This document shows, piece by piece, positions 4,600-62,365 of a stretch of 64,000 bases of DNA (positions are counted from its first letter, which is position 1; each line of letters starts with the position of its first letter). The stretch lies in contig OY970192.1 in NCBI GenBank assembly GCA_963708135.1, positions 2,413,465-2,477,464 on the forward strand, read 5' to 3'. Source of the stretch: an uncultured Gemmatimonadales bacterium (lineage in GTDB: Bacteria > Gemmatimonadota > Gemmatimonadetes > Longimicrobiales > RSA9). Both the position numbers and the translations under genes were made by a program. The notes under the pieces were generated by a model that did not search any database, had not been told where the DNA came from, and saw only the letters and a program-made list of their open reading frames with translations.

Positions 4600-4663
4600 G
4601 TCGGTGATCTCTCCTATAGTATCCGGTCGCTGCCGGACTTGTAGGAACTGGGGAATCCAGCTC

Positions 4664-4849
4664 TTACCAGCTCGCCTTGCGAACGCCCGGGATCTCGCCG
4701 CGCAGCGACATCTCGCGGAAGCAGATACGGCACAGCCCGAACTTGCGGATGAAGGCCCGCGGCCGGCCGCAACGGGTGCAGCGGTTGCGGGTGCGGACGC
4801 CGAACTTCGGCTTGCGCCGCGACTTCTCGATGAGCGCCTTTCTGGCCAT
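4664..4849 (-). CDS. rpsN: 30S ribosomal protein S14 type Z (zinc-binding)
   Basis: 61 aa with CTRCGRP...CRICFRE Cys4 motif. Confidence 0.9.
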
Positions 4850-6723: not shown

Positions 6724-7151
6724 GCGTTGCCTCCCTCCGCACCGCGCTCGCGCACGATGAACTTCGTCTTGACGGGCAGCTTGGCGGCGGCCAGAGCGAA
6801 GGCGCGGCGGGCGATGTCTTCGGGCACGCCCTCGAGCTCGAACATCATGCGTCCCGGCTTGACCACCGCGACCCACATCTCCGGGCTGCCCTTGCCCTTC
6901 CCCATCCGCGTCTCCGCGGGCTTCTTCGTGACCGGCTTGTCCGGGAAGATGCGAATCCAGACCTTGCCGCCACGCTTGATGTGACGCGTCATGGCGACAC
7001 GGGCGGCCTCGATCTGCCGGTTGGTGATCCAGCCCGGCTCCATCGTCTGCAAGCCGTAATCGCCAAAGGAAACGGCGTTGCCCCGCGTGGCCATGCCGCG
7101 CGTGCGACCCTTCTGCTGCTTGCGGTACTTGACTCTCTTCGGCGCCAGCAT
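6720..7151 (-). CDS. rplP: 50S ribosomal protein L16
   Basis: Start [19 protein letters not shown] (cat 7149-7151), 143 aa; the 351-aa ORF-track entry is an in-frame upstream artefact. Confidence 0.9.
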
Positions 7152-11202: not shown

Positions 11203-11229
11203 AGTCTCTTTTCTCTCGCGCGTGCCGCG

Positions 11230-12423
<1,194 letters not shown>

Positions 12424-12435
12424 GATCTCTTCTCC

Positions 12436-27521: not shown

Positions 27522-27769
27522 GTCTCACCTCCGGGCCGGGAGCCGAACGAATCCGGTGCAGCCTTTATGATATCCCGAAGCGCCGTGCCGGTTCCGCCGG
27601 CGCCCGGTGCCGGCGCGCTCCACGCAGGGTGGAGCCGACCGGCGGGTCGAGTCGATCGAGGTGTCGATCAATGGTTTCGGGGACGACGCGCGCGCCGGCA
27701 GTAGCGCCGGGGGTGTCCCGCACGCGCGGCTCCCGAGTACAAGGCGCGCGCGTGCGACTGCGTGCCGCG

Positions 27770-28963
<1,194 letters not shown>

Positions 28964-29000
28964 GATTCCCCTCGAGAGTGATCGCCGGTCCAGGTTCAGG

Positions 29001-29072
<72 letters not shown>

Positions 29073-29283
29073 CATCGTAGCGCGGCGCGGCCGAAGGAGG
29101 CATCCTCCGCCCGCGCCGCGACAGTTCATCTCGGAGCGACGGGGACCGCGGCGGGCGCTACGGCCGGCGGGGCCCCCGGGGTCCCGGGCGGGCGCGAGGG
29201 CCGGCTCCGAGACAGACCGCAATGATATAGGAGGAGAGGGAGGGAGTCAAGGGCTGGGACGGCCCGGGACGGCGGGACCGCGG

Positions 29284-29402
29284 GTCAGGGTGGGGGTGGG
29301 GGTGCGGGAAACGGTGGGGGTGGGGGTGGGGGTGAGGCGGCGGACGGGAGGGGTGGGAGGGACAGGGGGAGTGGGTTACATTGGCGGGCGGGGCGGGCGG
29401 GG
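29284..29402 (+). repeat. G-rich microsatellite tract, (GGTGGG)n hexamers; G-quadruplex-forming potential
   Basis: gggtgggggtgggggtgcggg...ggtgggggtgggggtgggggtgagg then further GGG runs to 29402; lies on the coding strand just upstream of the 29438 ORF. Confidence 0.6.
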
Positions 29403-29437
29403 GAGCGCCCCAGGGAAACTTCAACGCGGAGTGAAGA

Positions 29438-29620
29438 ATGCTGGAGTTCAAGGAGAATCAGTGGGGGACGGGGTACACGGTGCTGAAGGACGGGGAGCGG
29501 GTGGCGTCGGTGATCCCGCAGGGGGACAAGGTGGGGTACACGGTGTTCAACACGCCGGACATGGGGACGAAGGGGTCGATCGAGGACGTGAAGTCGCACC
29601 TGGAGAAGGTGCTCGGCTGA
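29438..29620 (+). CDS. small hypothetical protein (60 aa) with internal GYTV duplication
   Basis: MLEFKENQWGTGYTVLKDGERVASVIPQGDKVGYTVFNTPDMGTKGSIEDVKSHLEKVLG; GC3 near 95% with consistent G-ending codons; RBS ggag 7 nt upstream; two hairpins after the stop (29621-29690). Confidence 0.6.
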   Translation: MLEFKENQWGTGYTVLKDGERVASVIPQGDKVGYTVFNTPDMGTKGSIEDVKSHLEKVLG

Positions 29621-29840: not shown

Positions 29841-29913
29841 AGCGGGCGACCGGGCTCGAACCGGCGACCCCGAACTTGGAAGGCTCGTGCTCTACCAACT
29901 GAGCTACGCCCGC
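29841..29913 (-). tRNA. tRNA-Gly (anticodon TCC)
   Basis: Acceptor GCGGGCG/CGCCCGC, D-arm GCTC-AGTTGGTA-GAGC, anticodon loop CTTCCAA, T-arm GCCGG-TTCGAGC-CCGGT. Confidence 0.85.
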
Positions 29914-30218
29914 GAAAGCGGCCGGAGCGGGCCGGCCGGGGAGGAAAGATAGCGCTGGAGGCGCTGGGTCTCAAGTCGGAGCGGGGCAGGCCGGGCGGCG
30001 CTCGGGGGGTGCCGGCGGGGTCCGGGGCATCGAGCGGGGAGGGGGGTCGGATCGGGGGCCGGCGCGAGCTGGGCGAGGGGGGTGGGTGGGCTCGGGGTGG
30101 CGGGGTCGAGGGTGGCACGACTCGTGCGCCCCGGGGCGACGACTCAAAGTACTCCAACCGGTTGTCCAGGCGGGTGTTACAGACGCCGGTCGGATTCTCG
30201 AACTGGAGGTTTGCTGCC

Positions 30219-51614: not shown

Positions 51615-52541
51615 TCAGCGCTCCGCCGCGGCCGTGCCCTCGACGCCCTCGTAGACGATGCGCGAGAGGTCACCGATGAGCACGGCGGCGTCGTTGTCGA
51701 GGCGCCAGCTCCGGTCCTGGTTCTCCTTCGTCAGCACCGCCAGCACATAGTCGCGCGACTTGGCGTACACGATGGCGACGTCGTTGCGCGTCGCGTCCGT
51801 CTCGCCGGTCTTGTGCGCGACCGTCGCATCCGGGGGCAGGTAGCGCGGAATCTCGATCTGCCCGGCCATCTGCTTCTTCAGCATGTCAACCATCTGCGTG
51901 GAGGCGTCGGGGGAGACGGCCGTGCCGTCGTAGATCACGGCCATGAGCTTCGCGATCTCGAGCGGCGTGGTCGAGCCGAGGCCGTACTTCGCCGACGAGT
52001 CCGGGTTGATGGTCGTGCGCGCGCGCTCGAAGACCTTGGCCCACAGGCGCGTATGCCCGAGCCCGAGCGAGTCCATGCGCGCGTTCACCGCGCGGATCCC
52101 GAGCTTGCTCACGAGCAGATTGGTGGCCGTGTTGTCGCTCACGGCGATCATCAGCGTGGCCGCGTCCTTCACGGTCAGCTCGTGCGGCGCGTGCAGGAAC
52201 TGCAGCACTCCCGAGCCGGGCTCCCGATCGCCCGCCAGCATGAGCAGCGGATCGTCGAGATGGATGCTGCCGAGGCGCACACGGTGGAAAAGCTCGGTCA
52301 GAACCCCTAGCTTGATCACGCTCGCGGTCGGGAACGTCTCGTCGCCGCGGATGGCCAGGGTCTCGCCGGTCTTCGGATCGATGAGCGCGAGGCCGACCAC
52401 GCCGTGGTGCTGGGCGATCCTCGCCTCGAGCGCCGGTCGCAGCGCCGAGAACGGCTGCTGCGCGCCGGCCTCGCGGGGCCCCGCCAGGAGCGCCACGACG
52501 GCGACGGCGGCGGGCATGCGGAGCGCGAGGGGCACGCGCAT
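51615..52541 (-). CDS. class A beta-lactamase-family serine hydrolase (secreted)
   Basis: Start MRVPLALRMPAAVAVVALLAG (RBS gggaggag); SVIK (SxxK), SDN and KTG motifs at class-A spacing; omega-loop ExxLN not canonical. Confidence 0.75.
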   Translation of the reverse strand: MRVPLALRMPAAVAVVALLAGPREAGAQQPFSALRPALEARIAQHHGVVGLALIDPKTGETLAIRGDETFPTASVIKLGVLTELFHRVRLGSIHLDDPLLMLAGDREPGSGVLQFLHAPHELTVKDAATLMIAVSDNTATNLLVSKLGIRAVNARMDSLGLGHTRLWAKVFERARTTINPDSSAKYGLGSTTPLEIAKLMAVIYDGTAVSPDASTQMVDMLKKQMAGQIEIPRYLPPDATVAHKTGETDATRNDVAIVYAKSRDYVLAVLTKENQDRSWRLDNDAAVLIGDLSRIVYEGVEGTAAAER

Positions 52542-52686
52542 CGGGAACTCCTCCCTGCCTCGTGAGCGGTGCGGTGCTTCGGGTGCCGCGGCGCCGGCCG
52601 GACGCGGCATTCGAGCGGCGCCGGAACACTAGTCGCGCCACGCACGCGGCGCAAACGGGCAGACTCCTTGCACGCGCCGGGGGCGC

Positions 52687-53808
52687 ATGGACACCGTTCA
52701 CACCGAAGAACAGGTCTCGGCGCTGGCCGGGCGCCTGGCCAACGAGCCGCTCGTCGCCGCCGACACCGAGGCGGCCGGCTACCACAGGTACCACGACAGG
52801 ATCTGCCTGCTGCAGCTCTCGACGCGGCGCGAGACCTTCCTCGTGGACACCCTCGCGCTCGGCGACCTAGACCCGCTCGCCCCCCTCTTCGAGCGTTTCG
52901 CCACCGAGGTCGTCTTCCACGACGCCGACTACGACCTGCGCCTCCTCTCGCGCGACTTCGGCATCGAGGTGCACGCCCTCTTCGACACCAAGATCGCCGC
53001 CCAGATGCTCGGCGAGCCCGCCTTCGGCCTGGCCAACCTGCTGGAGAAGCACCTGGGCCTGCGGCTCGAGAAGAAGCACCAGCGCGCCGACTGGGCGCAG
53101 CGGCCGCTGCCCCGAGACATGCTCGAGTACGCCGCCGAGGACACGCGCTCACTACCCGCGCTGCGCGACCGGCTGAAGGAGCTCCTGGAGGAGAGGGGCC
53201 GGTTGGGCTGGGCCGAGGAGGAGTTCAGGGTGCAGGAAACCGTGCGCTGGACCACCGCGCCCGACGATCCCGACGCGTTCCTGCGCCTCAAGGGCACGCG
53301 CGAGCTCAAGCCCCGCCAGCTCGCCGCGCTGCGCGAGCTCTACGCCTGGCGCGAGGAGGAGGCCTCCGCCCGCGACCGCGCGAGCTTCCGCGTCATGGGC
53401 AACGACGCGCTGCTCGCCGTCGCCCGCGAGATGCCGGCCGCGCGCGGCGCGCTCGAGGACGTGAAGGGCCTGCCCCGCTCCTACGTCGAGCGCTTCGGCC
53501 CCGAGCTGCTCTCCGCCGTCCGCCGCGCGCGCGCCCTGCCGGACACCGAGCTGCCGGTCCGCCGCCGCGGCCCCTCTCGCCCGCCGCCCGACCCCGAGCT
53601 CGACGCCCTGCTCGATCGCCTGAAGGGTGCCCGCGACCGAGCCGCCGAGGAGCTCGGCCTCGACCGCGGCTTCCTCATGCCCCGCTCCCAGCTCGAGGAG
53701 CTCGCCCGCGCCCACCCCTCCTCCCGGGAGCAGATGGCCGCCCTCCCCGGCTTCCGCCACTGGCAGGTCGAGGCCGCCGGCACGCTGCTCATGAAGGTGC
53801 TGGGCTGA
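52687..53808 (+). CDS. rnd: ribonuclease D
   Basis: 373 aa; DEDDy 3'-5' exonuclease motifs (VAADTEAAGYH, FHDADYDL, YAAEDT) plus HRDC region. Confidence 0.85.
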   Translation: MDTVHTEEQVSALAGRLANEPLVAADTEAAGYHRYHDRICLLQLSTRRETFLVDTLALGDLDPLAPLFERFATEVVFHDADYDLRLLSRDFGIEVHALFDTKIAAQMLGEPAFGLANLLEKHLGLRLEKKHQRADWAQRPLPRDMLEYAAEDTRSLPALRDRLKELLEERGRLGWAEEEFRVQETVRWTTAPDDPDAFLRLKGTRELKPRQLAALRELYAWREEEASARDRASFRVMGNDALLAVAREMPAARGALEDVKGLPRSYVERFGPELLSAVRRARALPDTELPVRRRGPSRPPPDPELDALLDRLKGARDRAAEELGLDRGFLMPRSQLEELARAHPSSREQMAALPGFRHWQVEAAGTLLMKVLG

Positions 53809-53832
53809 ATCTCCGTCCCCGCCTCCACTCCA

Positions 53833-54055
53833 GAGTGGGAGAGTGGGAGAGTGGGAGACCGGGCGACGCTCGCCGCCGCCGACCGCGCCCGGGCCGCTCC
53901 TGCCCTCCGGCGGTTCCACGCTCGCCCCTCTCACCCCCCTGCCTCCCTGCCGCTGCCCCTGCCCCCTCCACCTCCACCTCCACCTGAACCTGCCCCTGCC
54001 TTCCGTTTCTGCCTTCTGCCCCTCCACCTCCACGTACCCCTACCCCTACCCCTCC
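53833..54055 (+). repeat. Simple-sequence repeat locus: (GAGTGGGA)3, a C-rich tract, (CCACCT)3-4, (CCCCTA)3
   Basis: gagtgggagagtgggagagtgggagacc at 53833-53860; cctccacctccacctccacct ~53960; tacccctacccctacccct ~54035; ~190 nt pyrimidine-only run on the plus strand between convergent genes. Confidence 0.6.
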
Positions 54056-54061
54056 GCGGGC

Positions 54062-54289
54062 CTACTGGTCGAGGTACCAGACGCTCAGGATGATCTCCCT
54101 GTCCCCCGCGCCGCCGCTCCCGGGAATCACCGACTGCCGGACCTCCACGATCTCGCGCTGCGGCCGCGCGCCCAGCCACGCGTTCACCGACTTCTCCAGC
54201 GCCTCCAGCCCTCGCTCGTTGAAGAACTTCACCTGCATCGCGCGCCCGGCGCCGGAATGCGACGGGACCGACGGGATCTCGAACGTCAT
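54062..54289 (-). CDS. small hypothetical protein (75 aa), DUF4177-like pattern (tentative)
   Basis: MTFEIPSVPSHSGAGRAMQVKFFNERGLEALEKSVNAWLGARPQREIVEVRQSVIPGSGGAGDREIILSVWYLDQ; RBS gaggagg; the 553-aa ORF-track entry is an upstream in-frame artefact. Confidence 0.5.
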   Translation of the reverse strand: MTFEIPSVPSHSGAGRAMQVKFFNERGLEALEKSVNAWLGARPQREIVEVRQSVIPGSGGAGDREIILSVWYLDQ

Positions 54290-54339
54290 GCGCTCCTCCT
54301 CGCGTTCGTGCCTGCCCGGCCGCGCCGGGCGGCCGCGGC

Positions 54340-57309
54340 TCAGGGCCGCAGCACCATGATCTTGCGCGTGACCGCGCCGTCCGGCAGCTCCACGACGAGC
54401 AGGTAGAGCCCGTTGGCGACGGCGCTGCCGCGCTCGTTCTCGAGCGTCCACGCCACGCTGCCCTCGCCGAGCGCCGAGCCGGCCGCTCCCCAGACGCGGC
54501 GGCCGGAGAGGGTGTAGATGCCGACCGAGCGCGGCGTGACGCCGTAGTTGATGATGAGCCGCTGCCCGCGCACCGGGTTCTCCGAGAGCGCCACCCGCTC
54601 CCCGGGCTCGAGCAGGGAGGCGGCGCGGTCCGCGGAGGCCACCGGCCCCGCCGCGCCCGTGCGCCGGTTCTGGGCGCCCGAGAGCGTCCCCTCCGAGCGG
54701 GTCTCCTCGGGCAGGTAGCGCGCGGCGAAGTGCGTCGCGTTCGGGGAGGCACCGCTGAGGCGCAGCGTCAGCAGCTCGTCGCGGGCCTCCCCCGCCGGCA
54801 CCACCACCGCGGGCGCGAAGGTCACGCGGCCCACGCCCGCCAGACGCGCGGCCACCTCGGCGTCCACGGGCTCGTCCGGCCCCGGCACGCCGTCGCCGTT
54901 CAGGTCCCGCACGAGCAGCGCCACGGCGGCGCTGTCGCGGCCGGTCACGTCGAAGCCCAGGCGTGTCACGGCCTGCGCCTCCGCAGAGTCGGCCACCAGG
55001 TGAACGGCGAGGAGCGGGACGAGCGTGCCGGCCCGCGTGCTGGTGGCGGGCGGGGCGGCGAGCGCCGCCACGTCCATCGCCAGCGACCCCGGGGGCGGCC
55101 CGAGCGCGTGCACGGCGGCCGCCACGTCCAGCTTGCCGTACCCCCACTGCGCGTTGGGCGTGCCCTCCGGCTCGCCCGTGTAGGGGTGGCGCGTGAAGGC
55201 ATCCTCCGCCGCGGCGCCGGTCAGCAGCGTGCGCGCCGCCTCGGGCGTGAGCGCGGGCCGCAGCTCGAGCAGCAGCGCCACCGCCCCGGTCACGAACGGC
55301 GCCGCCATGCTGGTGCCGAAGAGCACGGCGTGGCGGCCGTCCGCCTCGACGAAGTTCGGCAGCTTGGCCCAGAGGGTGGCATCCCGACTCATGGAGGACA
55401 CCACGACCTTGCCGGGCGCGGCGATCTCCGGCTTGAGCACGCCGTCGCGGCGTGGCCCGGGATCGCTGAAGAAGCCGATGTCGCCGAGCGGCTCCCGGTA
55501 CGGGAACGTCTGCGGCCCGGCCGCGGCCGTCCACGTCTCGCGCGAGGCGAAGGCCGCGACCGTGATCGCGCGCGTGGCGGAGCCGGGAGAGGAGACGAGG
55601 GTGCGGTTGTCGGAGGGGTCGAGCGAGGTGAGCTCCGTCGCCGTGGCGAGCGTGCTGCCCACGAGCCACATGTGCCAGGCACCGCCGTCCGCGATGTGCG
55701 CGCCGTCGAGGGTGATGGACCACGCACCGGGCACCGGCGGCTGCGCGGCGTCCTCGTCGAACACGGTGATGAGCGCCTCGCGGTCGCCATCGTTCGGGTC
55801 CCGGCCGCCCGAGGCGTTGTCGATCGCGATCGCGCCGTCCGGCGTGGCCACGATGGCGGTGTCGCCCATGGCGACGGCGACGCTGTAGCCGGCCGGCGTG
55901 GTCACGCGGATCGTCACCGAGTCCGCGCCGCCGTACCAGAGGTCGAGGACCGCGCCATCATCCACGGCGCCGGAGCCCGGCGTGTAGCTGGGCACCACCA
56001 GGTGGGTGGTGGCGCTTCCGCCGGGCGCGAGGGCGCCCGCCGCGTGCACCGGCGCACGCACGAAGGCCGGCGATTCGTTACCGTTGACCGCCTGGTTCCC
56101 CGCCACGGTGACGACGATGCGGCCCGCCCCCACGAGCTGGTCGATCGCCTGCTCGAAGAGCGTGGTGCCGTCGTGCGGGCCGAGCTGCGTGCCGAGCGAG
56201 AGGTTCACGACCGCCGGCTCCCCCAGCGCCGCCGCGCGGTCGAAGATGTAGGCCAGGCCGTCCAGCAGCCGGTCCGTCGTGAACGCGCCGTCGCCGCCCT
56301 TCACCACGATCAGGTCCGCGGCCGGGGCCACGCCCGCGAAGCGGTACGCCGGCTCGCCGTTGCCGGTGGCCGCCCCGTCGCCTGCCGCGATCCCGGCCAC
56401 GTGGGTGCCGTGCCCCACCCGGTCCACGAGCGCGCATCCGCCCGCGTCGATCAGCGCCGAGGAGCACTCCTCGCCGTAGTCGAAGACATCGCCGCCGACC
56501 GCGCCCGGCGCCGCGCCGCTCCCCGTCTGGTCCCACGCGTAGAGCACGCGTGTGGCGCCGGCGCCGTCCCGGAAGTCCTCGTGGGCGAGGTCCACCCCGC
56601 TGTCGTAGATGCCGACGACGACACCCTGCCCGGCGAGCCCCAGGAACCGGCTGCCCTCCCGCTGCCGCAGCGCGTCGGCATCCACGTCGCCCACCCCGAC
56701 CTCGTCCGTCCCGACGACGTCCCCCGTCACCAGCGCGGCGCGCGCCGGGGCCGCCGGGCCGGGCGGCCCACCGGGGGCGCCGGCGGCGACGGGCCGACTC
56801 GGCCCCGGCGCCACTCGCTCGCCGCCGCGCGCCGCCGCGGACAGTCCCGCCGCCGTGGCCGGCGCCGCGGGCGCGAGCCGGGCCGCCGCCTCCATGAAGC
56901 GGATCCCCGGCGTCCGGCCGAGCGCGCCGAGCGCGTCCACCGGGACGAGCGCGCTGACGATGTCGCCCACGCGCGCCCCCATGCGCGCCCCCGCGGCGCG
57001 CAGCACGGCCACCCCGCCGGCCTCCACCCGCACGAGCGCGTGAACGTACGCGCGGCCGCCCGGGCCGGCGGTCTCGACGGCGGCGGCGGCGAGGAAGGGC
57101 GGCACCGCGGCGGCAGCCGCGCCGGGGGAGGCGGCACCCGGCCGCGCGCCCTCCGCGCGCGAGGCGGGGCCCGGCTCCGCGGCGAGCGGGGCGGCCGCGC
57201 GCGAGGCCAGGAAGCGGAGCGGCGCGTCCATGCGCGCCTGCGCCTGCCCCGCGGCCGGCGCGGCGCTCAGCAGCAGGACCAGTCCGGCGGCGGTCAGCAG
57301 TCTATGCAT
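54340..57309 (-). CDS. S8-family (subtilisin-like) serine peptidase with T9SS-type C-terminal sorting domain
   Basis: Start MHRLLTAAGLVLLLSAAPAAGQAQA (signal peptide); catalytic D (IYDSGVD), H (HGTHVAGIAAG), S (GTSMAAPFVTGA); C-terminal ~90 aa beta-rich tail (LIINYGVTPRSVGIYTLSGRRVW...GLYLLVVELPDGAVTRKIMVLRP) resembles Por_Secre_tail. Confidence 0.85.
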   Translation of the reverse strand: MHRLLTAAGLVLLLSAAPAAGQAQARMDAPLRFLASRAAAPLAAEPGPASRAEGARPGAASPGAAAAAVPPFLAAAAVETAGPGGRAYVHALVRVEAGGVAVLRAAGARMGARVGDIVSALVPVDALGALGRTPGIRFMEAAARLAPAAPATAAGLSAAARGGERVAPGPSRPVAAGAPGGPPGPAAPARAALVTGDVVGTDEVGVGDVDADALRQREGSRFLGLAGQGVVVGIYDSGVDLAHEDFRDGAGATRVLYAWDQTGSGAAPGAVGGDVFDYGEECSSALIDAGGCALVDRVGHGTHVAGIAAGDGAATGNGEPAYRFAGVAPAADLIVVKGGDGAFTTDRLLDGLAYIFDRAAALGEPAVVNLSLGTQLGPHDGTTLFEQAIDQLVGAGRIVVTVAGNQAVNGNESPAFVRAPVHAAGALAPGGSATTHLVVPSYTPGSGAVDDGAVLDLWYGGADSVTIRVTTPAGYSVAVAMGDTAIVATPDGAIAIDNASGGRDPNDGDREALITVFDEDAAQPPVPGAWSITLDGAHIADGGAWHMWLVGSTLATATELTSLDPSDNRTLVSSPGSATRAITVAAFASRETWTAAAGPQTFPYREPLGDIGFFSDPGPRRDGVLKPEIAAPGKVVVSSMSRDATLWAKLPNFVEADGRHAVLFGTSMAAPFVTGAVALLLELRPALTPEAARTLLTGAAAEDAFTRHPYTGEPEGTPNAQWGYGKLDVAAAVHALGPPPGSLAMDVAALAAPPATSTRAGTLVPLLAVHLVADSAEAQAVTRLGFDVTGRDSAAVALLVRDLNGDGVPGPDEPVDAEVAARLAGVGRVTFAPAVVVPAGEARDELLTLRLSGASPNATHFAARYLPEETRSEGTLSGAQNRRTGAAGPVASADRAASLLEPGERVALSENPVRGQRLIINYGVTPRSVGIYTLSGRRVWGAAGSALGEGSVAWTLENERGSAVANGLYLLVVELPDGAVTRKIMVLRP

Positions 57310-57435
57310 GAAGATGATGCTGGGGCAGCGGGAATCCGGCATGGAAGTTAGGCGGCCGCGGGAGCCTCCACAAGCGACGGCGCCAGTGCCCGGGCGCACC
57401 ATCGCCGAAGCCTGTGTCCTGTCACGACACCAGTG

Positions 57436-57492
57436 GACCGTATCTGAAGTTCGGTGAGCACCGAATGCCATCGCTACTTCGGATACGGTCCG
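57436..57492 (-). other. Nested stem-loop RNA structure (terminator or leader element) between the DUF1707 gene and the peptidase
   Basis: ggaccgtatc...gatacggtcc perfect 10-bp outer stem enclosing ttcggtg-agc-caccgaa inner hairpin; lower GC than surroundings; starts at the DUF1707 stop. Confidence 0.3.
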
Positions 57493-58158
57493 CTAGCCGC
57501 CGGGCAAGGCGGCGGCGGGCGGCCGCCCGCCGCCGCGCGCGACGTAGCATTCGGCGTAGCCCAGCGTGGCCCGGCCCGTGAGGCGGACCACCGGTACGTC
57601 CTCCGCCTCGGCCCCGCCGCGCCCGCCCCTCACCGAGAAATACCCGGCGAACGCGTGGCCCTCGCTCTCGACACGCACGCCCGCGGGCAGCCGGATCTCG
57701 ACGTACCCCATGAACGCGTGCACCTCGATCTCCGTCGTTCCCGGCTCGAAGCGCGCGTGCGTGAGGTCGAGCTCCACGTAACCGAGCCGGGCGTGCAGGC
57801 GCAGGTGCCGCGGCGCGACGCCCGTGATCCGCACCTCCTGCCCCGACAGGAAAGCCCCCACTTCGCGCGGCGCCGGCGCCGGAACACCGGCGCCGGCGTT
57901 GCTGGGACCACCAGCGGCCTGCTCGGCCGCGAGCCCGGCGAGCACCGCCTCGAGCTCGGCGGGCGTCCTCGCGCGGTAGACCCGGTCGAGGAGCGACTCC
58001 AGCTCGGCCTCGCCGAGCTCGTCGGCCGCGTACCGGCGCGTCAGCATCGCGACCGCCCGCTCCCGCGCCGCCGGCGCAGGCGCGGGGGCAGGCGCCGGCG
58101 TGGGCGCGAATGGCTCGGGTCGCTCGGGGTCGGTCGGCGCGGGCATCGCATCCTCCAT
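57493..58158 (-). CDS. DUF1707 (SHOCT-like) plus LiaF-like C-terminal domain protein
   Basis: Start set at MEDAMPAPTDPERPEPF; Pro/Ala-rich linker, DUF1707-like helix pair (RERAVAMLTRRYAADELGEAELESLLDRVYRART), C-terminal repeated Gly/Tyr beta strands (FMGYVEIRLPAGVRVESEGHAFAGYFSVRG) as in the LiaF family; upstream in-frame extension unclear. Confidence 0.6.
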   Translation of the reverse strand: MEDAMPAPTDPERPEPFAPTPAPAPAPAPAARERAVAMLTRRYAADELGEAELESLLDRVYRARTPAELEAVLAGLAAEQAAGGPSNAGAGVPAPAPREVGAFLSGQEVRITGVAPRHLRLHARLGYVELDLTHARFEPGTTEIEVHAFMGYVEIRLPAGVRVESEGHAFAGYFSVRGGRGGAEAEDVPVVRLTGRATLGYAECYVARGGGRPPAAALPGG

Positions 58159-58390
58159 CGGAGACAGCACCACGGTAGGCTCCCGCCGGCCCCCGGTCAA
58201 CGCGCCGGCCGGCACCGGAGCCCACCCGTGTAGCGGCGCCGGGCAGGCGATCGGCCCCGACGCAGAGCGCCCGGCGAGCCGATCGACCGCCGACGCGGAC
58301 GCGCTCGGCGGCGCGACCACCCGCGGGCGCGGAACCGCCGGCCGCCCGATCACCCCGGCAGTCCTCGGCCGCCCCGACCGTCTCCCACTC

Positions 58391-58409
58391 TCCCACTCCC
58401 GGGGGGCGG
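58391..58409 (-). repeat. (GAGTGGGA)2 octamer array, inverted copy of the 53833 array
   Basis: Plus strand gtc-tcccactc-tcccactc-ccgggg is the reverse complement of gagtgggagagtgggagac; 19-nt exact match with 53841-53859. Confidence 0.5.
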
Positions 58410-58486
58410 GCACGATGGCGCTGCCCGGCTGGCCCCGTCACCACCACCCGCCTACCTTCCAGAATCCCCTCGCCCGGAGGAGTCCC

Positions 58487-59647
58487 ATGCACGGGAGCAC
58501 CATGCGCGCCGCGGCCGCCCAGCTCACGCTCCTGCTGGCGCTCGGGCCCGCCGCGCGTGCCCAGACACCGGCCGCGGGCGGGTTCGTGGCCACGATCGGG
58601 ACGGGCACCCTCGACACCGTGGCCGTCGAGCACTACACCCGCACGCCCACCCGCCTCATCGGCAGCAGCGCCGTGGCGAATCCGCGCGCGCAGATCCGGA
58701 CGTACGACGTGTCCTTCTCGCCCGCCGGGCGCGTCGAGCGCATCCATCTGACCGCCGGCGCACCCGGGACCCCGCCCGACCTCACTGCCGACTACGTCTA
58801 CTCCGGCGACAGCGTGACGGTCACTATGCACCGCGACACCGCCAGCCGGCGCTACGCCGTGGCCACCCACGGCGAGCGGCCGCTTCCCTTCTTCGAGGAC
58901 CTGTTCGGCTTCTGGGAGGTGGCCATCGGCCAGGCCGCCGCCGGGCAGGCCGATAGCGCGACGTTGGAAGCCCTGGCCGGGCGACAGGTCCTGCCGATCA
59001 CCGTGGTTCGCCGCGGCCCGGGCCGCGTGGACTTCGGCTTTCCGGACTGGGGCACCGTCCACGCCACGCTGGACGCCGGCCACCGCTTCCGCCGCCTCGA
59101 CATGACGGAGACCACCAACAAGTACACTGTGCTGCCGGCCTCCGCCGTGGACGTGGAGCACGTCGCGGCCACCTGGGCCGCCCGCCCGCAGCCGGGGCAG
59201 CTCTCTCCCCGCGATACCGCGGAGGCCGCTGTCGGCGCCGCCCACATCGTCGTGGACTACGGCCGCCCATCCATGCGCGGGCGGAAGGTTTTCGGGGGCA
59301 TCGTGCCGTGGAACGCAGTATGGCGGACGGGGGCGAACGCGGCCACGCAGCTCATCACGGACCGCGACCTCGAGATCGGCGGCACGCTCGTGCCCGCCGG
59401 CACCTATTCGCTCTTCAGCCTCCCGACCGAGAGCGGCTGGACCCTGATCATCAACAGCCAGCACGGCCAGTGGGGCACCGAGTACCACCCCGAGCAGGAT
59501 CTCGCCCGCATCCCCCTGACCGTGACGCGGCTCGCCGATCCCGTCGAGCGGTTCACGATCGCGGTCACGCCCGCGGACGCGGGTGCCGGCACGCTGGACC
59601 TGGCGTGGGAGCGGACGAAGGGGAGCGTCGCCGTCCGGGTGAAGTAG
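58487..59647 (+). CDS. DUF2911-domain secreted protein
   Basis: Start MHGSTMRAAAAQLTLLLALGPAARAQ (RBS ggaggag); C-terminal half (GGIVPWNAVWRTGANAATQL...GTYSLFSLPTESGWTLIINSQHGQWGTEYHPEQD) matches the DUF2911 pattern. Confidence 0.7.
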   Translation: MHGSTMRAAAAQLTLLLALGPAARAQTPAAGGFVATIGTGTLDTVAVEHYTRTPTRLIGSSAVANPRAQIRTYDVSFSPAGRVERIHLTAGAPGTPPDLTADYVYSGDSVTVTMHRDTASRRYAVATHGERPLPFFEDLFGFWEVAIGQAAAGQADSATLEALAGRQVLPITVVRRGPGRVDFGFPDWGTVHATLDAGHRFRRLDMTETTNKYTVLPASAVDVEHVAATWAARPQPGQLSPRDTAEAAVGAAHIVVDYGRPSMRGRKVFGGIVPWNAVWRTGANAATQLITDRDLEIGGTLVPAGTYSLFSLPTESGWTLIINSQHGQWGTEYHPEQDLARIPLTVTRLADPVERFTIAVTPADAGAGTLDLAWERTKGSVAVRVK

Positions 59648-59729
59648 GAGCGCCGGCCGGCGACGGCGCGGCAGCCGCGGGTCGAGAACGCGCGCCGGAC
59701 GCGGGCGGCGGGCGCGTCGCCTTCGGCGC

Positions 59730-60206
59730 TCAGGTCCCCCAGGGGTCGAAGCCGAGCATGATGTAGTCGCCGGAGCGGCCCTCGAGCGCGGCGGCGCCGC
59801 TGTCGATCGCCTCGAGCGACTCCTCCGCCTCACCGACCGCCGCGGCGGCCTCGCGGATCGCCTGGAGCACGCCCCTCACCTGCGCGAGCTGGAGCAGGAC
59901 GTACGCCTTGGGCGCGGCATCGGAGCCGCGCGGCTCGACGACCAGGTCCACGAGGTCCGTCTCCTGGGAGATCTTCCACACATCGCCCGTCTTCTTCAGC
60001 AGCTTGTCCGCCGCCTTCACGTCCGCGTGCAGCGTGCGCACCATCTTCTGCACCTCGCGGTCGCTGTTCCCGCGCTGGCGCGAGAAGCGCTGGGCCAGTC
60101 CCGCGGCGTCGCCCTCCTCCCGGCGCTGCGCCGTGCGGGCGAGCAGCTCGCCCACATAGGCGTAGATGCCGACAACGATGGGGATCGGATCGAGTGCGAC
60201 GCGCAT
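59730..60206 (-). CDS. hypothetical protein (158 aa)
   Basis: Start MRVALDPIPIVVGIYAYVGELLARTAQ (cat 60204-60206; RBS gaggag); no family recognised by eye. Confidence 0.5.
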   Translation of the reverse strand: MRVALDPIPIVVGIYAYVGELLARTAQRREEGDAAGLAQRFSRQRGNSDREVQKMVRTLHADVKAADKLLKKTGDVWKISQETDLVDLVVEPRGSDAAPKAYVLLQLAQVRGVLQAIREAAAAVGEAEESLEAIDSGAAALEGRSGDYIMLGFDPWGT

Positions 60207-60335
60207 GGAGCTCCTCTCTCTGGGCTGCCGGCCGGCCCTGCTCCGTCCGCCGGGGGGCCGCGGGGGCAGAAGGATGCGCGCCGCGGCGGGCGGCGTCAAC
60301 CGGGGCGAGGCGGGCTCGCGCGAAGCCGGCCGGCG

Positions 60336-60344
60336 TGATAGAAT
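60336..60344 (+). promoter_or_regulatory. Extended -10 promoter candidate (TGATAGAAT) for the 60379 lipoprotein gene
   Basis: tgatagaat at 60336-60344, ~35 nt upstream of the ATG in a divergent intergenic region; -35 is weak. Confidence 0.3.
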
Positions 60345-60378
60345 GGCGCGTCGCCCGAACCGAACCACCGGAGGATGC

Positions 60379-60759
60379 ATGCGCAGGATCGTCCGCGTCG
60401 CCCTGCTCGCCGCCGCCGCGGCCGGCATGTCCGCCTGCAAGGACCTGGGACTGCGCCACGCAAGGGACCTGCCGTACGACCAGGCCGAGAACGCGCCCAC
60501 GCCGCAGTGGGCCTACCAGGCAGCGGATCCGAAGAACCCGAAGCCGTACGAAGCCCACACCGACAAGCGCTTCAGCTACGCCGGCCGCACGTGGGTGGTG
60601 GCGTTCCCGCGCTACGCGCTGCCGGCCGGCTCCATGCGCAGCGTCGGCACCGTGGACGGCCTGCAGGTCAGCGCCCTCGCCTGGGACGACGCGCCCTACG
60701 ACCAGCTGTTCGTGCCGGCGGGCGGCGGAAGCTGGCAGGCGGCGGAGCCGGTGTACTAG
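60379..60759 (+). CDS. hypothetical lipoprotein (126 aa)
   Basis: MRRIVRVALLAAAAAGMSAC lipobox-type signal; RBS ggagg. Confidence 0.6.
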   Translation: MRRIVRVALLAAAAAGMSACKDLGLRHARDLPYDQAENAPTPQWAYQAADPKNPKPYEAHTDKRFSYAGRTWVVAFPRYALPAGSMRSVGTVDGLQVSALAWDDAPYDQLFVPAGGGSWQAAEPVY

Positions 60760-60816
60760 GGATTCGGGATTCGGGATGCGGAGGCGGGCCCGCTCGGCGA
60801 GCGGGCCCGCGGTGCA

Positions 60817-61236
60817 TCAGCCGGGGGCGTCGGGCTCCGGCGGCGGCGCCTGCTTCGCGGTATCCGCCTGCTTGGCGGCGGGCGTGACGTCCCCGGCGGG
60901 CGGCCGGTCCTGCGGGGGCGCTTCGCGCGTGGAATCGGCGGGCGGCGTGATCGGGCCGGGCTCGCTCGGCGGCGGCGAGCGTCGCCCACCCACCGACTTT
61001 CCCACTCCCCCACCCGGGGCGGAGGGCGGCGGCGGGGCCGCCGGTGGCGCATCGTCGCGGGCCAGCACGCGCCAGATGCCGATGCCGCCGAGAAGCGCGC
61101 CGGCGAGCACGAGGGCGGGGAGGAGCGGGTTGCCGGCGCCGCTCAGCAGCCTGCTGACGGCGGCCAGCACGAAGACGACGGTGAAGACCGTCCAGACGAT
61201 CGCGCCTATGCGGGGGCGCCACGCCGTTCCACTCAT
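60817..61236 (-). CDS. small membrane protein with Pro-rich C-terminal tail
   Basis: Start set at MSGTAWRPRIGAIVWTVFTVVFVLAAV, two predicted TM helices, then PPAAPPPPSAPGG... Confidence 0.5.
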   Translation of the reverse strand: MSGTAWRPRIGAIVWTVFTVVFVLAAVSRLLSGAGNPLLPALVLAGALLGGIGIWRVLARDDAPPAAPPPPSAPGGGVGKSVGGRRSPPPSEPGPITPPADSTREAPPQDRPPAGDVTPAAKQADTAKQAPPPEPDAPG

Positions 61237-61240
61237 CCGC

Positions 61241-62365
61241 TCAGTCCGTTTCCTTCCCCTGGAGCAGCGGCTCGCACGGCTCGAGGCGCGCGCCGCTCTC
61301 GTCGGCCACGGCATAGCGCTGGCCCGGGTACATGGCCACGCCGGCGTGCTCGCCGGCCCTGGTCAGGATATAGAAGTTGAGCCCGAAGTTCGGCAGCCCG
61401 CGCGCGTTCAGCAGCCGCTTCTCGACGGTGTTGCGCTGGACCCGCCGCAGCGCATCGAGCCCGGCGTCCTTGGGGTGCATCCCGCGGCGGAGGTTTTCGA
61501 CGATGAGGAACGAGCACAGGTTGTAGAGGTTCGCCTCGCCCCGCCCCGTGGAGCCGGCCGCGCCCACGTCGTTGTCGACGTAGAGGCCGGCGCCGAGGAT
61601 CGGCGAGTCGCCCACGCGGCCCGGGATCTTGAAGGCCAGCCCGCTCGTCGTGGTGACGCCGCACACGTCGCCTGTGGCGTTCACGCCGTCGCAGTTGATG
61701 GTGCCGTAGTAGTGGTCGGCGTCGATCAGCCCCTCGCGGATCATCTCGAGCCCGACCCGCCGGCCGGCCTCCTCGCGCTCCTTCGGGTTTGGGTAGCTGT
61801 CCGGGTTCGTACGCCGCTTCCACTCGAGCCAGAGCCGGCGCGAGAGGTCGGTATTCAGGTCGTCCTCGATGGTGTAGCCCATCATGCGCGCGAAGTGCTG
61901 CGCCCCGGCGCCCGCGAGCAGCAGGTTGTCGGTCTCGTTCATGACGTCGCGCGCCACGTGCGAGGGGGTGCGCACGCCCTCCAGCGCGGCCACGCCGCCC
62001 GCCCGCCTCCTCGGCCCGTGCATGCAGCAGGCGTCCAGCTGCACCACGCCGTCCGCGTTCGGCAGCCCGCCGTAGCCGACGTAGGGGTCCGCCGGGTCCA
62101 GCTCCACGATGCTCACGCCCGCGATGAGAGCGTCCAGCACATCCGCCCCGCCCGAGATCATCGCAAACGCCTTCTCCACGCACGTGTGCCCATCGGCATC
62201 CTTCGAATCCATGCCGTTCGCCGCGGCAATCACCACCGGCCGCGACGCCGACCGACGGTGGACCGTCGGCGCGGGAAACGCCAGGGCCGCCCCCGGCGCG
62301 GCGGCGGCGAGGCCGGCGACGGCGCCGGCCGCCACGAACTCGCGGCGGTTCATCCTCCGTTCCAT
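61241..62365 (-). CDS. Ntn-hydrolase asparaginase-2 family (glycosylasparaginase or isoaspartyl peptidase) with Tat signal
   Basis: MNRREFVAAGAVAGLAAAAPGAALA twin-arginine motif; autoproteolytic nucleophile region DHYYGTINCD...GRVGDSPILGAGLYVDNDVGAAGSTGRGE. Confidence 0.8.
   Translation of the reverse strand: MERRMNRREFVAAGAVAGLAAAAPGAALAFPAPTVHRRSASRPVVIAAANGMDSKDADGHTCVEKAFAMISGGADVLDALIAGVSIVELDPADPYVGYGGLPNADGVVQLDACCMHGPRRRAGGVAALEGVRTPSHVARDVMNETDNLLLAGAGAQHFARMMGYTIEDDLNTDLSRRLWLEWKRRTNPDSYPNPKEREEAGRRVGLEMIREGLIDADHYYGTINCDGVNATGDVCGVTTTSGLAFKIPGRVGDSPILGAGLYVDNDVGAAGSTGRGEANLYNLCSFLIVENLRRGMHPKDAGLDALRRVQRNTVEKRLLNARGLPNFGLNFYILTRAGEHAGVAMYPGQRYAVADESGARLEPCEPLLQGKETD

Follow-up and report, generated by a model that had tools for sequence, protein, structure and literature searches.

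Octamer arrays as the G-rich heads of a three-copy, non-coding spacer repeat at a remodelled locus in a Longimicrobiales genome

Analysing a 64-kb stretch of DNA from an uncultured member of the Longimicrobiales (the window), we found that the inverted octamer arrays previously noted around a peptidase gene make up the G-rich heads of a longer repeat of ~80-115 nt, which does not code for protein and which the preliminary description of this DNA had missed. Three copies (A on the plus, B and C on the minus strand) lie inside 7.2 kb, each composed of a C-rich leader, the G-rich octamer head and a GC-rich core (Table 1). With a probability of about one half, the best explanation is that the arrays are the microsatellite heads of a non-coding repeat, low in copy number and specific to this lineage, which was spread by local duplication and shaped by slippage; its copies probably are functionally neutral spacer or UTR DNA.

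Table 1 Repeat copies, associated sequence features and neighbouring genes, with positions as counted in the window
Feature	Position	Strand	Remarks
Copy A	53813-53924	+	Starts 5 nt past the RNase D stop codon, in a 253-nt convergent spacer
Perfect (GAGTGGGA)x3 array of copy A	53833-53856	+	Four G3 runs, G-quadruplex-type motif
G4 motifs of the copies	A 53837-53863; B 58372-58400; C 60989-61015		5-nt loops in A; loops of up to 12 nt in B and C
C-rich, G-poor tract	53897-54070	+	C 57%, G 14% (C 99, G 25); most extreme in the window
Small 76-aa ORF (54062-54292) and S8 peptidase (54340-57471)	54062-57471	-	Ancestral syntenic, bracketed by A and B; Pfam, tblastn
Lineage-specific insertion with copy B	57493-59647		DUF1707/LiaF-like 57493-58164 (-), DUF2911 58487-59647 (+)
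Tandem repeat, 32-33 nt unit, ~2-4 units	58236-58355		CGATCG palindromes; TRF scores 94 and 80
Copy B	58324-58400	-	Most diverged copy; DUF1707/LiaF-like (minus) and DUF2911 (plus) diverge from its 322-nt spacer
Perfect (GAGTGGGA)x2 array of copy B	58383-58398	-	
Homologues of the 159-aa gene (59733-60206, -) and the 122-aa gene (60394-60759, +)	59733-60759		tblastn
(GGGATTC)3, then perfect 13-bp hairpin (60784-60810)	60759-60810		Between the 122-aa gene and the ORF139 stop
Copy C	60924-61035	-	Within the tail of an orphan ORF (60817-61236)

With 76% identity over 112 nt, copies A and C form the longest inverted repeat in the window (nhmmer on copy A: E=1e-24), their Smith-Waterman score being 59 as compared to 14.0±2.3 in shuffles. 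For copy B the scores amount to 31 against A (12.5±2.1 in shuffles) and 25 against C (13.0±2.4), and an HMM built on A and C alone returned it as the best non-self match (E=0.017); across the inverted pairs, identity of the repeat arms is 55-76%. The 19-nt exact inverted match (GAGTGGGAGAGTGGGAGAC), rightly described before as very unlikely to arise by chance (the expectation in dinucleotide shuffles of the window is 0.01 for a 17-mer), is common to A and B and is their longest perfect homology, that of A and C being 22 nt. The earlier view that the match is not due to chance is supported, and the match does belong to a repeated element, the one with three copies. All of the six GAGTGGGA octamers in the window fall within A, B and C; a Chi-like site could be ruled out, since an octamer confined to three copies is not over-represented. 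Neither nhmmer nor Smith-Waterman searches found a further copy in the other 57 kb of the window.

Regarding the arrays themselves, the x3 array was found on the plus strand exactly as reported, followed in copy A by a degenerate fourth unit, GACCGGGC. The inverted x2 array also exists on the minus strand, at a position ~11 nt away from the one given earlier (58394-58409). In copy C, the octamer head is degenerate (GGGTGGGG GAGTGGGA AAGTCGGT GGGTGGGC); the related motif formerly placed at ~60985-61011 is indeed present in degenerate form, at ~60985-61015 on the minus strand, but the "coding tail" said to host it scores as non-coding. This difference in copy number between the copies, with perfect arrays in A and B and a degenerate one in C, is a signature of slippage, and three of the four perfect non-triplet SSRs in the window (periods of 8, 6 and 7 nt) cluster in these spacers. 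We infer that the copies were made when spacer DNA was duplicated, or copied ectopically, in the course of local rearrangements and that they diverged thereafter, and that replication slippage re-amplified the same seed octamer independently in A (x3) and B (x2), with the head of C decaying. Given common descent and octamer slippage, the 19-nt exact match would be a by-product of both rather than a dedicated recombination site. Neither duplication junctions nor paralogous flanking genes, the latter being sought as evidence for a segmental duplication, were found around the copies to document how the copying took place. A DGR TR/VR pair was discarded, the mismatches between A and C occurring at all bases instead of being adenine-specific, and no reverse transcriptase being present among the scanned neighbours. 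The tandem repeat with the 32-33 nt unit overlaps the 3' part of copy B.

Perfect SSRs of non-triplet period, concentrated in spacers and varying in copy number between paralogous copies, are also what one would look for in contingency loci, in which gain or loss of octamer or hexamer units switches the adjacent genes, and the preliminary description had listed this possibility. Contingency loci usually carry longer tracts, however, whereas the arrays described here comprise just 2-3 units, and none of them lies in sequence with a coding signal, in frame with such sequence or between recognisable -35/-10 elements. Copy A and the SSRs nearby, namely (CCACCT)3 at 53968-53985 and (TACCCC)3 at 54035-54053, both of which had been noted correctly, stand between convergent stop codons, where a change in length can shift neither a reading frame nor a promoter. 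Of all explanations considered, we hold this one to be the least probable.

A protein-coding repeat was rejected as well: an open state of nearly all six frames is only to be expected at 71% GC, and codon usage scores below or close to zero in every frame of the spacers of A and B and of the ORF139 tail. This tail, belonging to an orphan ORF (60817-61236) for which no homologue was found, scores 0.03 bits per codon, compared to 0.50 for the N-terminal part of the same ORF and 0.4-0.8 for the genes around it. In the 139-aa orphan protein, the Pro-rich tail probably is the spacer repeat read through as an ORF.

The locus has been remodelled in comparison to other Longimicrobiales by the insertion of DUF1707 and DUF2911 and by spacer expansion. 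In three distinct relatives of this order (the nearest RNase D is 68% identical), the genes follow each other as RNase D, S8 peptidase, 159-aa gene and 122-aa gene, in the same orientation as here, and are separated by repeat-free spacers of 39-93 nt, which contain simple hairpins or other SSRs instead. The homologues of the 159-aa and the 122-aa gene (63% and 32% identical to those of the relatives in tblastn) directly follow the S8 peptidase in the relatives, with no counterpart of DUF1707 and DUF2911 in between; homologues of DUF2911 are found elsewhere in the relatives, in unrelated contexts. Each repeat copy resides in an expanded or new spacer: A in the 3' spacer of RNase D, B in the DUF1707-DUF2911 insertion and C at the synteny break past the 122-aa gene. 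As for the T9SS label of the S8 peptidase, TIGR04183 scored 17.3 bits over residues 965-1040 (the exact C-terminus), below its cut-off of 23 for the Por_Secre_tail domain, and Pfam gave no match.

This conserved gene order bears directly on the proposal that the arrays bracket a 4.5-kb module which recombination might invert. The arrays do flank genes; the bracketed block, in turn, is no mobile or invertible cassette, because the relatives retain its order and orientation and DUF1707-DUF2911 was inserted together with copy B. Recombination between A and B (4.5 kb) or A and C (7 kb) could in principle flip the peptidase/LiaF-like segment, as the inverted orientation and the exact identities are real, A and B enclose a complete operon on the minus strand, and the presumed promoter region of this operon is close to B. 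We nevertheless consider inversion very improbable. The genes have the same orientation in all three repeat-free relatives, no recombinase or invertase was detected among the genes scanned with Pfam/NCBIfam at 51.6-62.4 kb, and the arms, with their modest overall identity, contain no perfect stretch longer than the minimum that RecA needs to recombine efficiently (about 23-27 bp in E. coli). Moreover, the invertons known so far consist of a short promoter segment between tight inverted repeats, unlike a block of genes of 4.5-7 kb.

Could the three copies represent a genome-wide family of small mobile or dispersed elements (MITE-, REP- or RPE-like), which happened to insert three times at this locus? 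The short and repeat-free host spacers in the relatives are what insertions predict, copy C extends ORF139 in the manner of Rickettsia palindromic elements, which are insertions extending ORFs, and copy B arrived with the inserted gene pair, suggesting copies elsewhere. In addition, an amidohydrolase gene of one relative contains an in-frame insertion of an octamer array. The presence of a near-identical array, (CAGTGGGA)3, at an unrelated site in a relative hints, against the reading favoured above, that the octamer unit may not be arbitrary. Against a dispersed family stand the distribution of the repeat, whose three copies share 7.2 kb while the rest of the window has no copy, and the outcome of the searches beyond the window. 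Scanning 596 Gb of genomes with a pattern for the degenerate core yielded 23 loci, and scanning JGI metagenomes for one GAGTGGGA followed by a gap of 0-24 nt and the first part of the core yielded 41, always with a single match per locus and never clustered in one genome. These loci were dismissed as chance matches, since none scored above 20.7 bits with the element HMM and each matched over the pattern alone. BLAST against plasmids and phages revealed no homology, the short and marginal GC-rich matches all being inside genes, and in viral contigs the array (AGTGGGAN)3 occurred at 6 loci as compared to 9, 12 and 5 for three permuted-octamer controls, so the motif is not special there. The literature search returned nothing relevant. 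Terminal inverted repeats or target-site duplications could not be seen by eye at the fuzzy boundaries of A and C, the only TIR-like feature being a weak 8/10 match of the octamer with a 3' TTCCACGCTC, and a palindromic hairpin is missing. In the DNA searched, no copy lies outside this 7.2-kb stretch, and we regard a dispersed family as unlikely.

The DNA behind copy A deserves separate attention. It had been portrayed as a ~190-nt homopyrimidine run with potential for H-DNA or triplex formation, a view which is not supported: pyrimidines make up 76% of the interrupted interval 53865-54055 (C 58%, G 16%), pure pyrimidine runs within 53801-54100 all stay below 12 nt, and the tract, at 76-82% pyrimidine, is devoid of a long homopurine-homopyrimidine mirror repeat. 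What is found instead is a C-rich, G-poor tract on the sense strand of RNase D, where the C-over-G skew of the window reaches its maximum (at 53962); on the minus strand it is accordingly G-rich, just 3' of the small ORF. In its composition the tract resembles a rut site, for which at least ~80 nt of unstructured, C-rich and G-poor sequence are expected on the sense strand downstream of a gene, and judged from its sequence a Rho-loading role is possible. An intrinsic hairpin terminator was not found in the 3' spacer of RNase D. At most, copy A together with this tract may have replaced an ancestral hairpin terminator, in which case the tract would load Rho and keep RNase D transcription from continuing, in antisense, into the peptidase operon. 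On the other side of the locus, the perfect hairpin at 60784-60810 probably acts as a bidirectional terminator downstream of copy C.

Such features raise the question of a cis-acting regulatory or RNA module, whose G-rich head would serve as a G-quadruplex or as a protein-binding site (GGA/GAG every 8 nt) and which, together with the C-rich tract, would act on the RNase D, DUF1707-S8 and asparaginase-ORF139 transcripts by controlling their termination, stability or translation. All three copies keep at least four G3 runs on the same strand, with loops short enough to qualify as a G-quadruplex motif, and A and C both lie sense-oriented, immediately 3' of a same-strand gene; the shared G3 runs and the shared position of A and C could reflect selection rather than neutrality. 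Copy A precedes the strongest C-over-G tract of the window, and C precedes the hairpin. G4 motifs are depleted in the window (17 versus 50.6±6.9 in shuffles), so that those retained stand out; another one is situated on the minus strand of the C-rich tract (53934-53966). The G-runs may, however, be plain inheritance from a common ancestor, and the orthologous spacers of the relatives lack the element. Fold energies of the three copies on both strands remained within those of shuffles (z -1.3 to +1.5), covariation in alifold was limited to two pairs with double-sided changes and is uninformative with three sequences, and no Rfam 15 covariance model matched any copy at the gathering threshold or at E≤1; a structured ncRNA was rejected accordingly. 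No consensus promoter or terminator was found. A promoter-like site (TTGACC-N17-TACCGT) was read by eye, with copy B probably upstream of it, which, if the site is real, places B outside the DUF1707 transcript. An ECF-type promoter was excluded too: GGAAC does occur on the C-rich strand, but only 12-13 nt separate it from the conserved GA(T/G)C, and A and C have no downstream gene. All in all, we consider a cis-acting module unlikely.

A further-reaching version of this idea would be that Longimicrobiales have a modular UTR/termination element, not described so far and represented by the three copies, in which a G4 head is combined with a C-rich Rho-loading tract or a hairpin, insulating convergent transcription units or tuning them post-transcriptionally, and which spreads by being copied into the new spacers that rearrangements leave behind. 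We rate it as improbable; if true, a G4-plus-rut UTR module would offer a simple entry point to transcription termination and insulation in Gemmatimonadota, a very GC-rich phylum for which, to our knowledge, neither characterised terminators nor small repeats are known. For the locally duplicated, slippage-prone spacer repeat which we favour, the value lies mainly in annotation: inverted arrays around a seeming "module" here mark no mobile or phase-variable cassette.

Compared to known systems, the repeat shares single traits with several of them. Like Rho-dependent terminators (rut), it has a ~170-nt C-rich, G-poor sense-strand tract directly after RNase D, a likeness of composition that concerns copy A alone. 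With invertons such as fimS or hin it has in common the inverted repeats flanking a segment beside a promoter region; those systems, however, have a dedicated recombinase and short, near-perfect repeats around a few hundred bp, whereas here arms of 55-76% identity enclose conserved genes over 4.5-7 kb, with no recombinase seen. RPE and ORF-inserting MITEs are resembled in the C-terminal ORF extension formed by copy C and by the in-frame array in the amidohydrolase gene of a relative, but neither terminal inverted repeats nor target-site duplications nor a palindromic fold were detected here, and the copy number apparently is very low. REP/BIME sequences of Proteobacteria resemble the repeat as short, GC-rich, non-coding sequences in spacers at gene 3' ends, sometimes close together and in opposite orientations. 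REPs, in contrast, occur in hundreds of copies, have an imperfectly palindromic sequence of 20-40 nt and are associated with RAYT transposases; the repeat described here was seen in three copies with no RAYT, has a microsatellite head and forms no palindrome or hairpin stabler than shuffles, and the search of 53700-54100 for inverted repeats of at least 8 nt, as a REP-type stem-loop would have, returned just a trivial 9-nt palindrome within the RNase D gene. Mycobacterial MIRU/VNTR loci also belong to a high-GC genome, are intergenic sequences of 40-100 nt in or next to operons, and show a tandem character and a copy number varying between loci. In their case, however, the MIRU itself is the tandem unit and is dispersed at about 40 loci, whereas in the repeat presented here an 8-mer tandem unit sits on a unique core of 70-80 nt and the copies are clustered locally.

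The perfect (GAGTGGGA)x3 array reported in the preliminary description is borne out by a direct check of the sequence, and its inverted x2 counterpart is real as well, but lies about 11 nt to the left of the 58394-58409 first assigned to it (coordinates of all features are listed in the table). The three sites pointed out there account for every one of the six GAGTGGGA octamers in the window. The 17-mer GAGTGGGAGAGTGGGAG occurs three times in the window, twice overlapping in the first array and once in the second, against 0.01 expected from dinucleotide shuffles of the window, so that the 19-nt inverted match between copies A and B (GAGTGGGAGAGTGGGAGAC, the longest exact inverted word) is indeed beyond chance. 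The site of a related motif, placed further downstream, is confirmed too. A repeat search paired it with the first array: no inverted repeat in the window is longer than this one (112 nt, 76% complementary), which joins copies A and C. An HMM made from these two only returned copy B as its top non-self match (E=0.017); the next-ranked matches had E ≥0.6, and no fourth element-like site was found in the 64 kb. Smith-Waterman scores were 59 for A-C (14.0±2.3 in composition-matched shuffles), 31 for A-B (12.5±2.1) and 25 for C-B (13.0±2.4); being far above the shuffles, they exclude, together with the 17-mer expectation, a chance origin of arrays and copies.

Aligned, the three sites consist of a ~20-nt C-rich leader, a G-rich head of 2-4 octamers and a GC-rich core with the common positions GACG.TCG..GC.GCCGA......CCGG...G.TC....CG.TTCC.CGC.CG. 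The head comprises three perfect units and one degenerate unit in A and two perfect units in B, and is decayed in C (GGGTGGGG GAGTGGGA AAGTCGGT GGGTGGGC). Perfect identity between inverted copies is limited to 19-22 nt; outside their 19-nt exact stretch A and B are ~55-60% identical, and a perfect match within such a pair is what independent slippage would yield if two old paralogues had started from one seed octamer. We give a probability of roughly one half to the following reading: the element would be a spacer repeat of low copy number, specific to the lineage and copied locally during rearrangement of this stretch, octamer slippage would have produced the striking exact A-B match, and the copies would be neutral or at most UTR or terminator filler. 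Three-way homology, the lack of coding signal, the absence of the element from relatives, the insertion with the synteny break and the traces of slippage are observed; the manner of copying, neutrality and a rut-like role of the C-rich tract are inferred.

Repeat copies, genes and further features (window positions)
Feature	Position	Strand	Remarks
tuf copy 1	11220-12426
tuf copy 2	27760-28966
tRNA gene	29001-29072	-
G-rich tract	29221-29409	+
60-aa ORF	29438-29620	+
tRNA gene	29841-29913	-
G-rich tract	30036-30115	+
Class-A beta-lactamase-like	51615-52610	-
RNase D	52687-53808	+
Copy A	53813-53924	+	starts 5 nt past RNase D stop, 253-nt convergent spacer
Octamer array x3	53833-53856	+
C-rich, G-poor tract	53897-54070
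(CCACCT)3	53968-53985
(TACCCC)3	54035-54053
76-aa ORF	54062-54292	-
S8 peptidase	54340-57471	-
Inserted divergent pair	57472-59732
DUF1707/LiaF-C-like	57493-58164	-
TTGACC-N17-TACCGT	58200-58172	-
Tandem repeat	58236-58355
Copy B	58324-58400	-	in 322-nt divergent spacer, DUF1707/DUF2911
Octamer array x2	58383-58398	-
DUF2911	58487-59647	+
159-aa protein	59733-60206	-
122-aa protein	60394-60759	+
(GGGATTC)3 and hairpin	60759-60810
13-bp GC hairpin	60784-60810
139-aa ORF (ORF139)	60817-61236	-	start 4 nt past asparaginase stop
Copy C	60924-61035	-	in tail of ORF139
Asparaginase-2	61241-62365	-

The gene map is based on Pfam and NCBIfam scans and on tblastn of relatives' proteins, and coding status on a codon-usage log-odds score trained on the window's 16 confident genes. 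Neighbouring genes score 0.4-0.8 bits/codon, whereas the spacers of A and B range from -0.67 to +0.05 in every frame. ORF139, which has no homologue but itself among 5.8 billion proteins, scores 0.50 in its membrane-like N-terminal part and 0.03 in its tail. The copies are open in nearly all six frames, which at 71% GC is uninformative. We conclude that the element is non-coding DNA and that ORF139 simply stays open across copy C until the first stop is reached. The N-terminal half of ORF139, with coding-like codon usage, looks like a two-helix membrane peptide, its tail being the spacer repeat. Adjoining its stop is a perfect hairpin, preceded by (GGGATTC)3, whose first base is the last one of the stop codon of the 122-aa gene; both together probably form a bidirectional terminator, common to this gene and the converging asparaginase-ORF139 unit. 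The S8 peptidase, described as T9SS-type, matches the T9SS tail below threshold (17.3 bits, cut-off 23). One ORF spans its 1043 aa in the window, while gene calling in two relatives divides it into two overlapping ORFs (L024, 11447-14754, 315+787 aa; L027, 11165-15129, 319+1002 aa). The low-complexity N-terminal region of the window's S8 (56.7-57.2 kb, 81-86% GC, many repeats) is weakly coding (0.25 bits/codon).

In the protein search, the non-self best matches of RNase D were at most 68% identical, the named ones belonging to Longimicrobiales/Gemmatimonadota. Three distinct relatives (contigs L024-L026, L027/L028 and L070) have the common order beta-lactamase(-), RNase D(+), [small ORF](-), S8(-), 159-aa(-), 122-aa(+), and a fourth (L071/L072) has the RNase D end of it. 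The segment enclosed by A and B is therefore for the most part an ancestral operon of the chromosome rather than a cassette, its order and orientation kept in relatives. There, the 159-aa gene directly follows S8, whereas the window has DUF1707, copy B and DUF2911 between the two; compared with all relatives examined, the DUF1707/LiaF-like and DUF2911 genes are an inserted divergent pair. The insertion splits the ancestral operon, so a new promoter must have been acquired. Homologues of DUF2911 (~65% identical) stand in unrelated neighbourhoods without DUF1707, and past the 122-aa gene synteny varies among all genomes compared. Nothing in the relatives' RNase D 3' spacers, which measure 39-93 nt, resembles the element; what they carry are plain hairpins or different short SSRs. 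These short spacers without the element, the insertion and the synteny break indicate that each copy sits in a spacer which this lineage has either gained or enlarged. The relatives' SSRs differ in unit, (CTCTTG)2 in L070 (~6935-6950) and, where a contig breaks off, (GCAAGA)n (L073, 6442-6467; L074, 3' end), so that 3' spacers rich in microsatellites would seem to be characteristic of the clade.

The proposal that the copies recombine and invert the peptidase/LiaF segment is very improbable. Gene orientation in the relatives is that of the window, no recombinase was found among the Pfam/NCBIfam-scanned genes of 51.6-62.4 kb, the arms are 55-76% identical, and the stretches of perfect identity are at or below the usual minimum for RecA recombination, ~23-27 bp in E. 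coli. That a MITE/REP-like family is spread through the genome, with these copies as three of its members, is quite doubtful, given three copies in 7 kb against none in the other 57 kb of the window, and empty scans of genome and metagenome collections. A degenerate 35-nt core pattern (21 fixed bases), run against 596 Gb of species-representative genomes, matched 23 loci, one apiece in 23 different organisms, at ≤20.7 bits against the element HMM and over the pattern alone; 41 loci matching a head-plus-core pattern in JGI metagenomes were equally weak, and plasmid and phage BLAST gave nothing beyond short marginal matches within genes. Arrays of (AGTGGGAN)3 occur in 6 viral contigs, and since three permuted-octamer controls gave 9, 12 and 5, the unit is not special there. 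L071 (GCA_017881445.1, JADGQX010000189.1) carries (CAGTGGGA)3 followed by (TCCCCCCA)~5 arrays at 4600-4679, an in-frame ~50-aa insertion in a loop of an amidohydrolase gene; the (CAGTGGGA) octamer is almost identical to the window's unit, yet the site is unrelated, and the remainder of the region has no homology to the element.

A genuine cis-regulatory or RNA-level module, with a G4 or protein-binding head, is an unlikely alternative. Four or more G3 runs lie on the same strand in all three copies, by sequence a motif of G4 type, and such motifs are depleted across the window (17 observed, 50.6±6.9 in block shuffles). Rfam contained no family for any copy, at gathering score or E≤1, and single-sequence folds of every copy on both strands were not stabler than dinucleotide shuffles (z -1.3 to +1.5). 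The consensus fold has a plausible outer stem (octamer versus TTCCACGC) and an inner stem, with double-sided changes in two pairs only, too few to count with three sequences. A consensus scan of 53600-61400 yielded no sigma-70-type promoter and no intrinsic terminator; the TTGACC-N17-TACCGT site, spotted by eye, could drive DUF1707, in which case copy B would lie upstream of the transcript. Also upstream of DUF1707 is a tandem repeat of 32-33 nt (TRF scores 94 and 80) in which palindromes centred on CGATCG recur; it may be an operator array.

Both SSRs described for the RNase D spacer, (CCACCT)n and a C-rich (CCCCTA)-type repeat, are present. The accompanying "~190-nt homopyrimidine run" is pyrimidine-rich (76% over 53865-54055), but no uninterrupted run reaches 12 nt. 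That the octamer arrays and these repeats are contingency SSRs is scarcely credible, as the tracts are short, fall in no frame and do not separate promoter elements. After copy A, on the RNase D sense strand, the C-rich tract (C 57%, G 14%) has the strongest C-over-G skew anywhere in the window and the composition defining a Rho-loading site, and might act in a rut-like manner; an inverted-repeat search found no hairpin in this spacer, whereas the orthologous spacer of L024 has one. The most novel interpretation, a UTR/termination module that combines a G4 with a rut site and typifies Longimicrobiales, is improbable. G-richness in the window peaks in two + strand tracts in the region of two tRNA genes; they resemble the C-rich tract with opposite polarity and contain many G4-type motifs, e.g. 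(GGGTGG)n. Directly downstream of one lies a non-repetitive 60-aa ORF with strongly atypical codons (-1.28 bits/codon) and no Pfam match, which may be a foreign gene or spurious. The two EF-Tu genes form a ~1.2-kb direct duplication (offset 16540, three mismatches), its near-identity suggesting ongoing gene conversion.

Taken together, the observations of the preliminary description are partly confirmed and its interpretation is only partly supported. Among known systems, the element is most like the small extragenic repeats of many bacteria: REP/BIME, MIRU-type intergenic repeats and RPE/MITEs. REP sequences are defined by a palindrome, which the element lacks, and invertons by a recombinase and the occurrence of both orientations, neither of which was found; RPE/MITEs can extend ORFs, and copy C here lies in the tail of ORF139. 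Rather than as a new mechanism, the element is best filed with the small extragenic repeats, as a new low-copy repeat.
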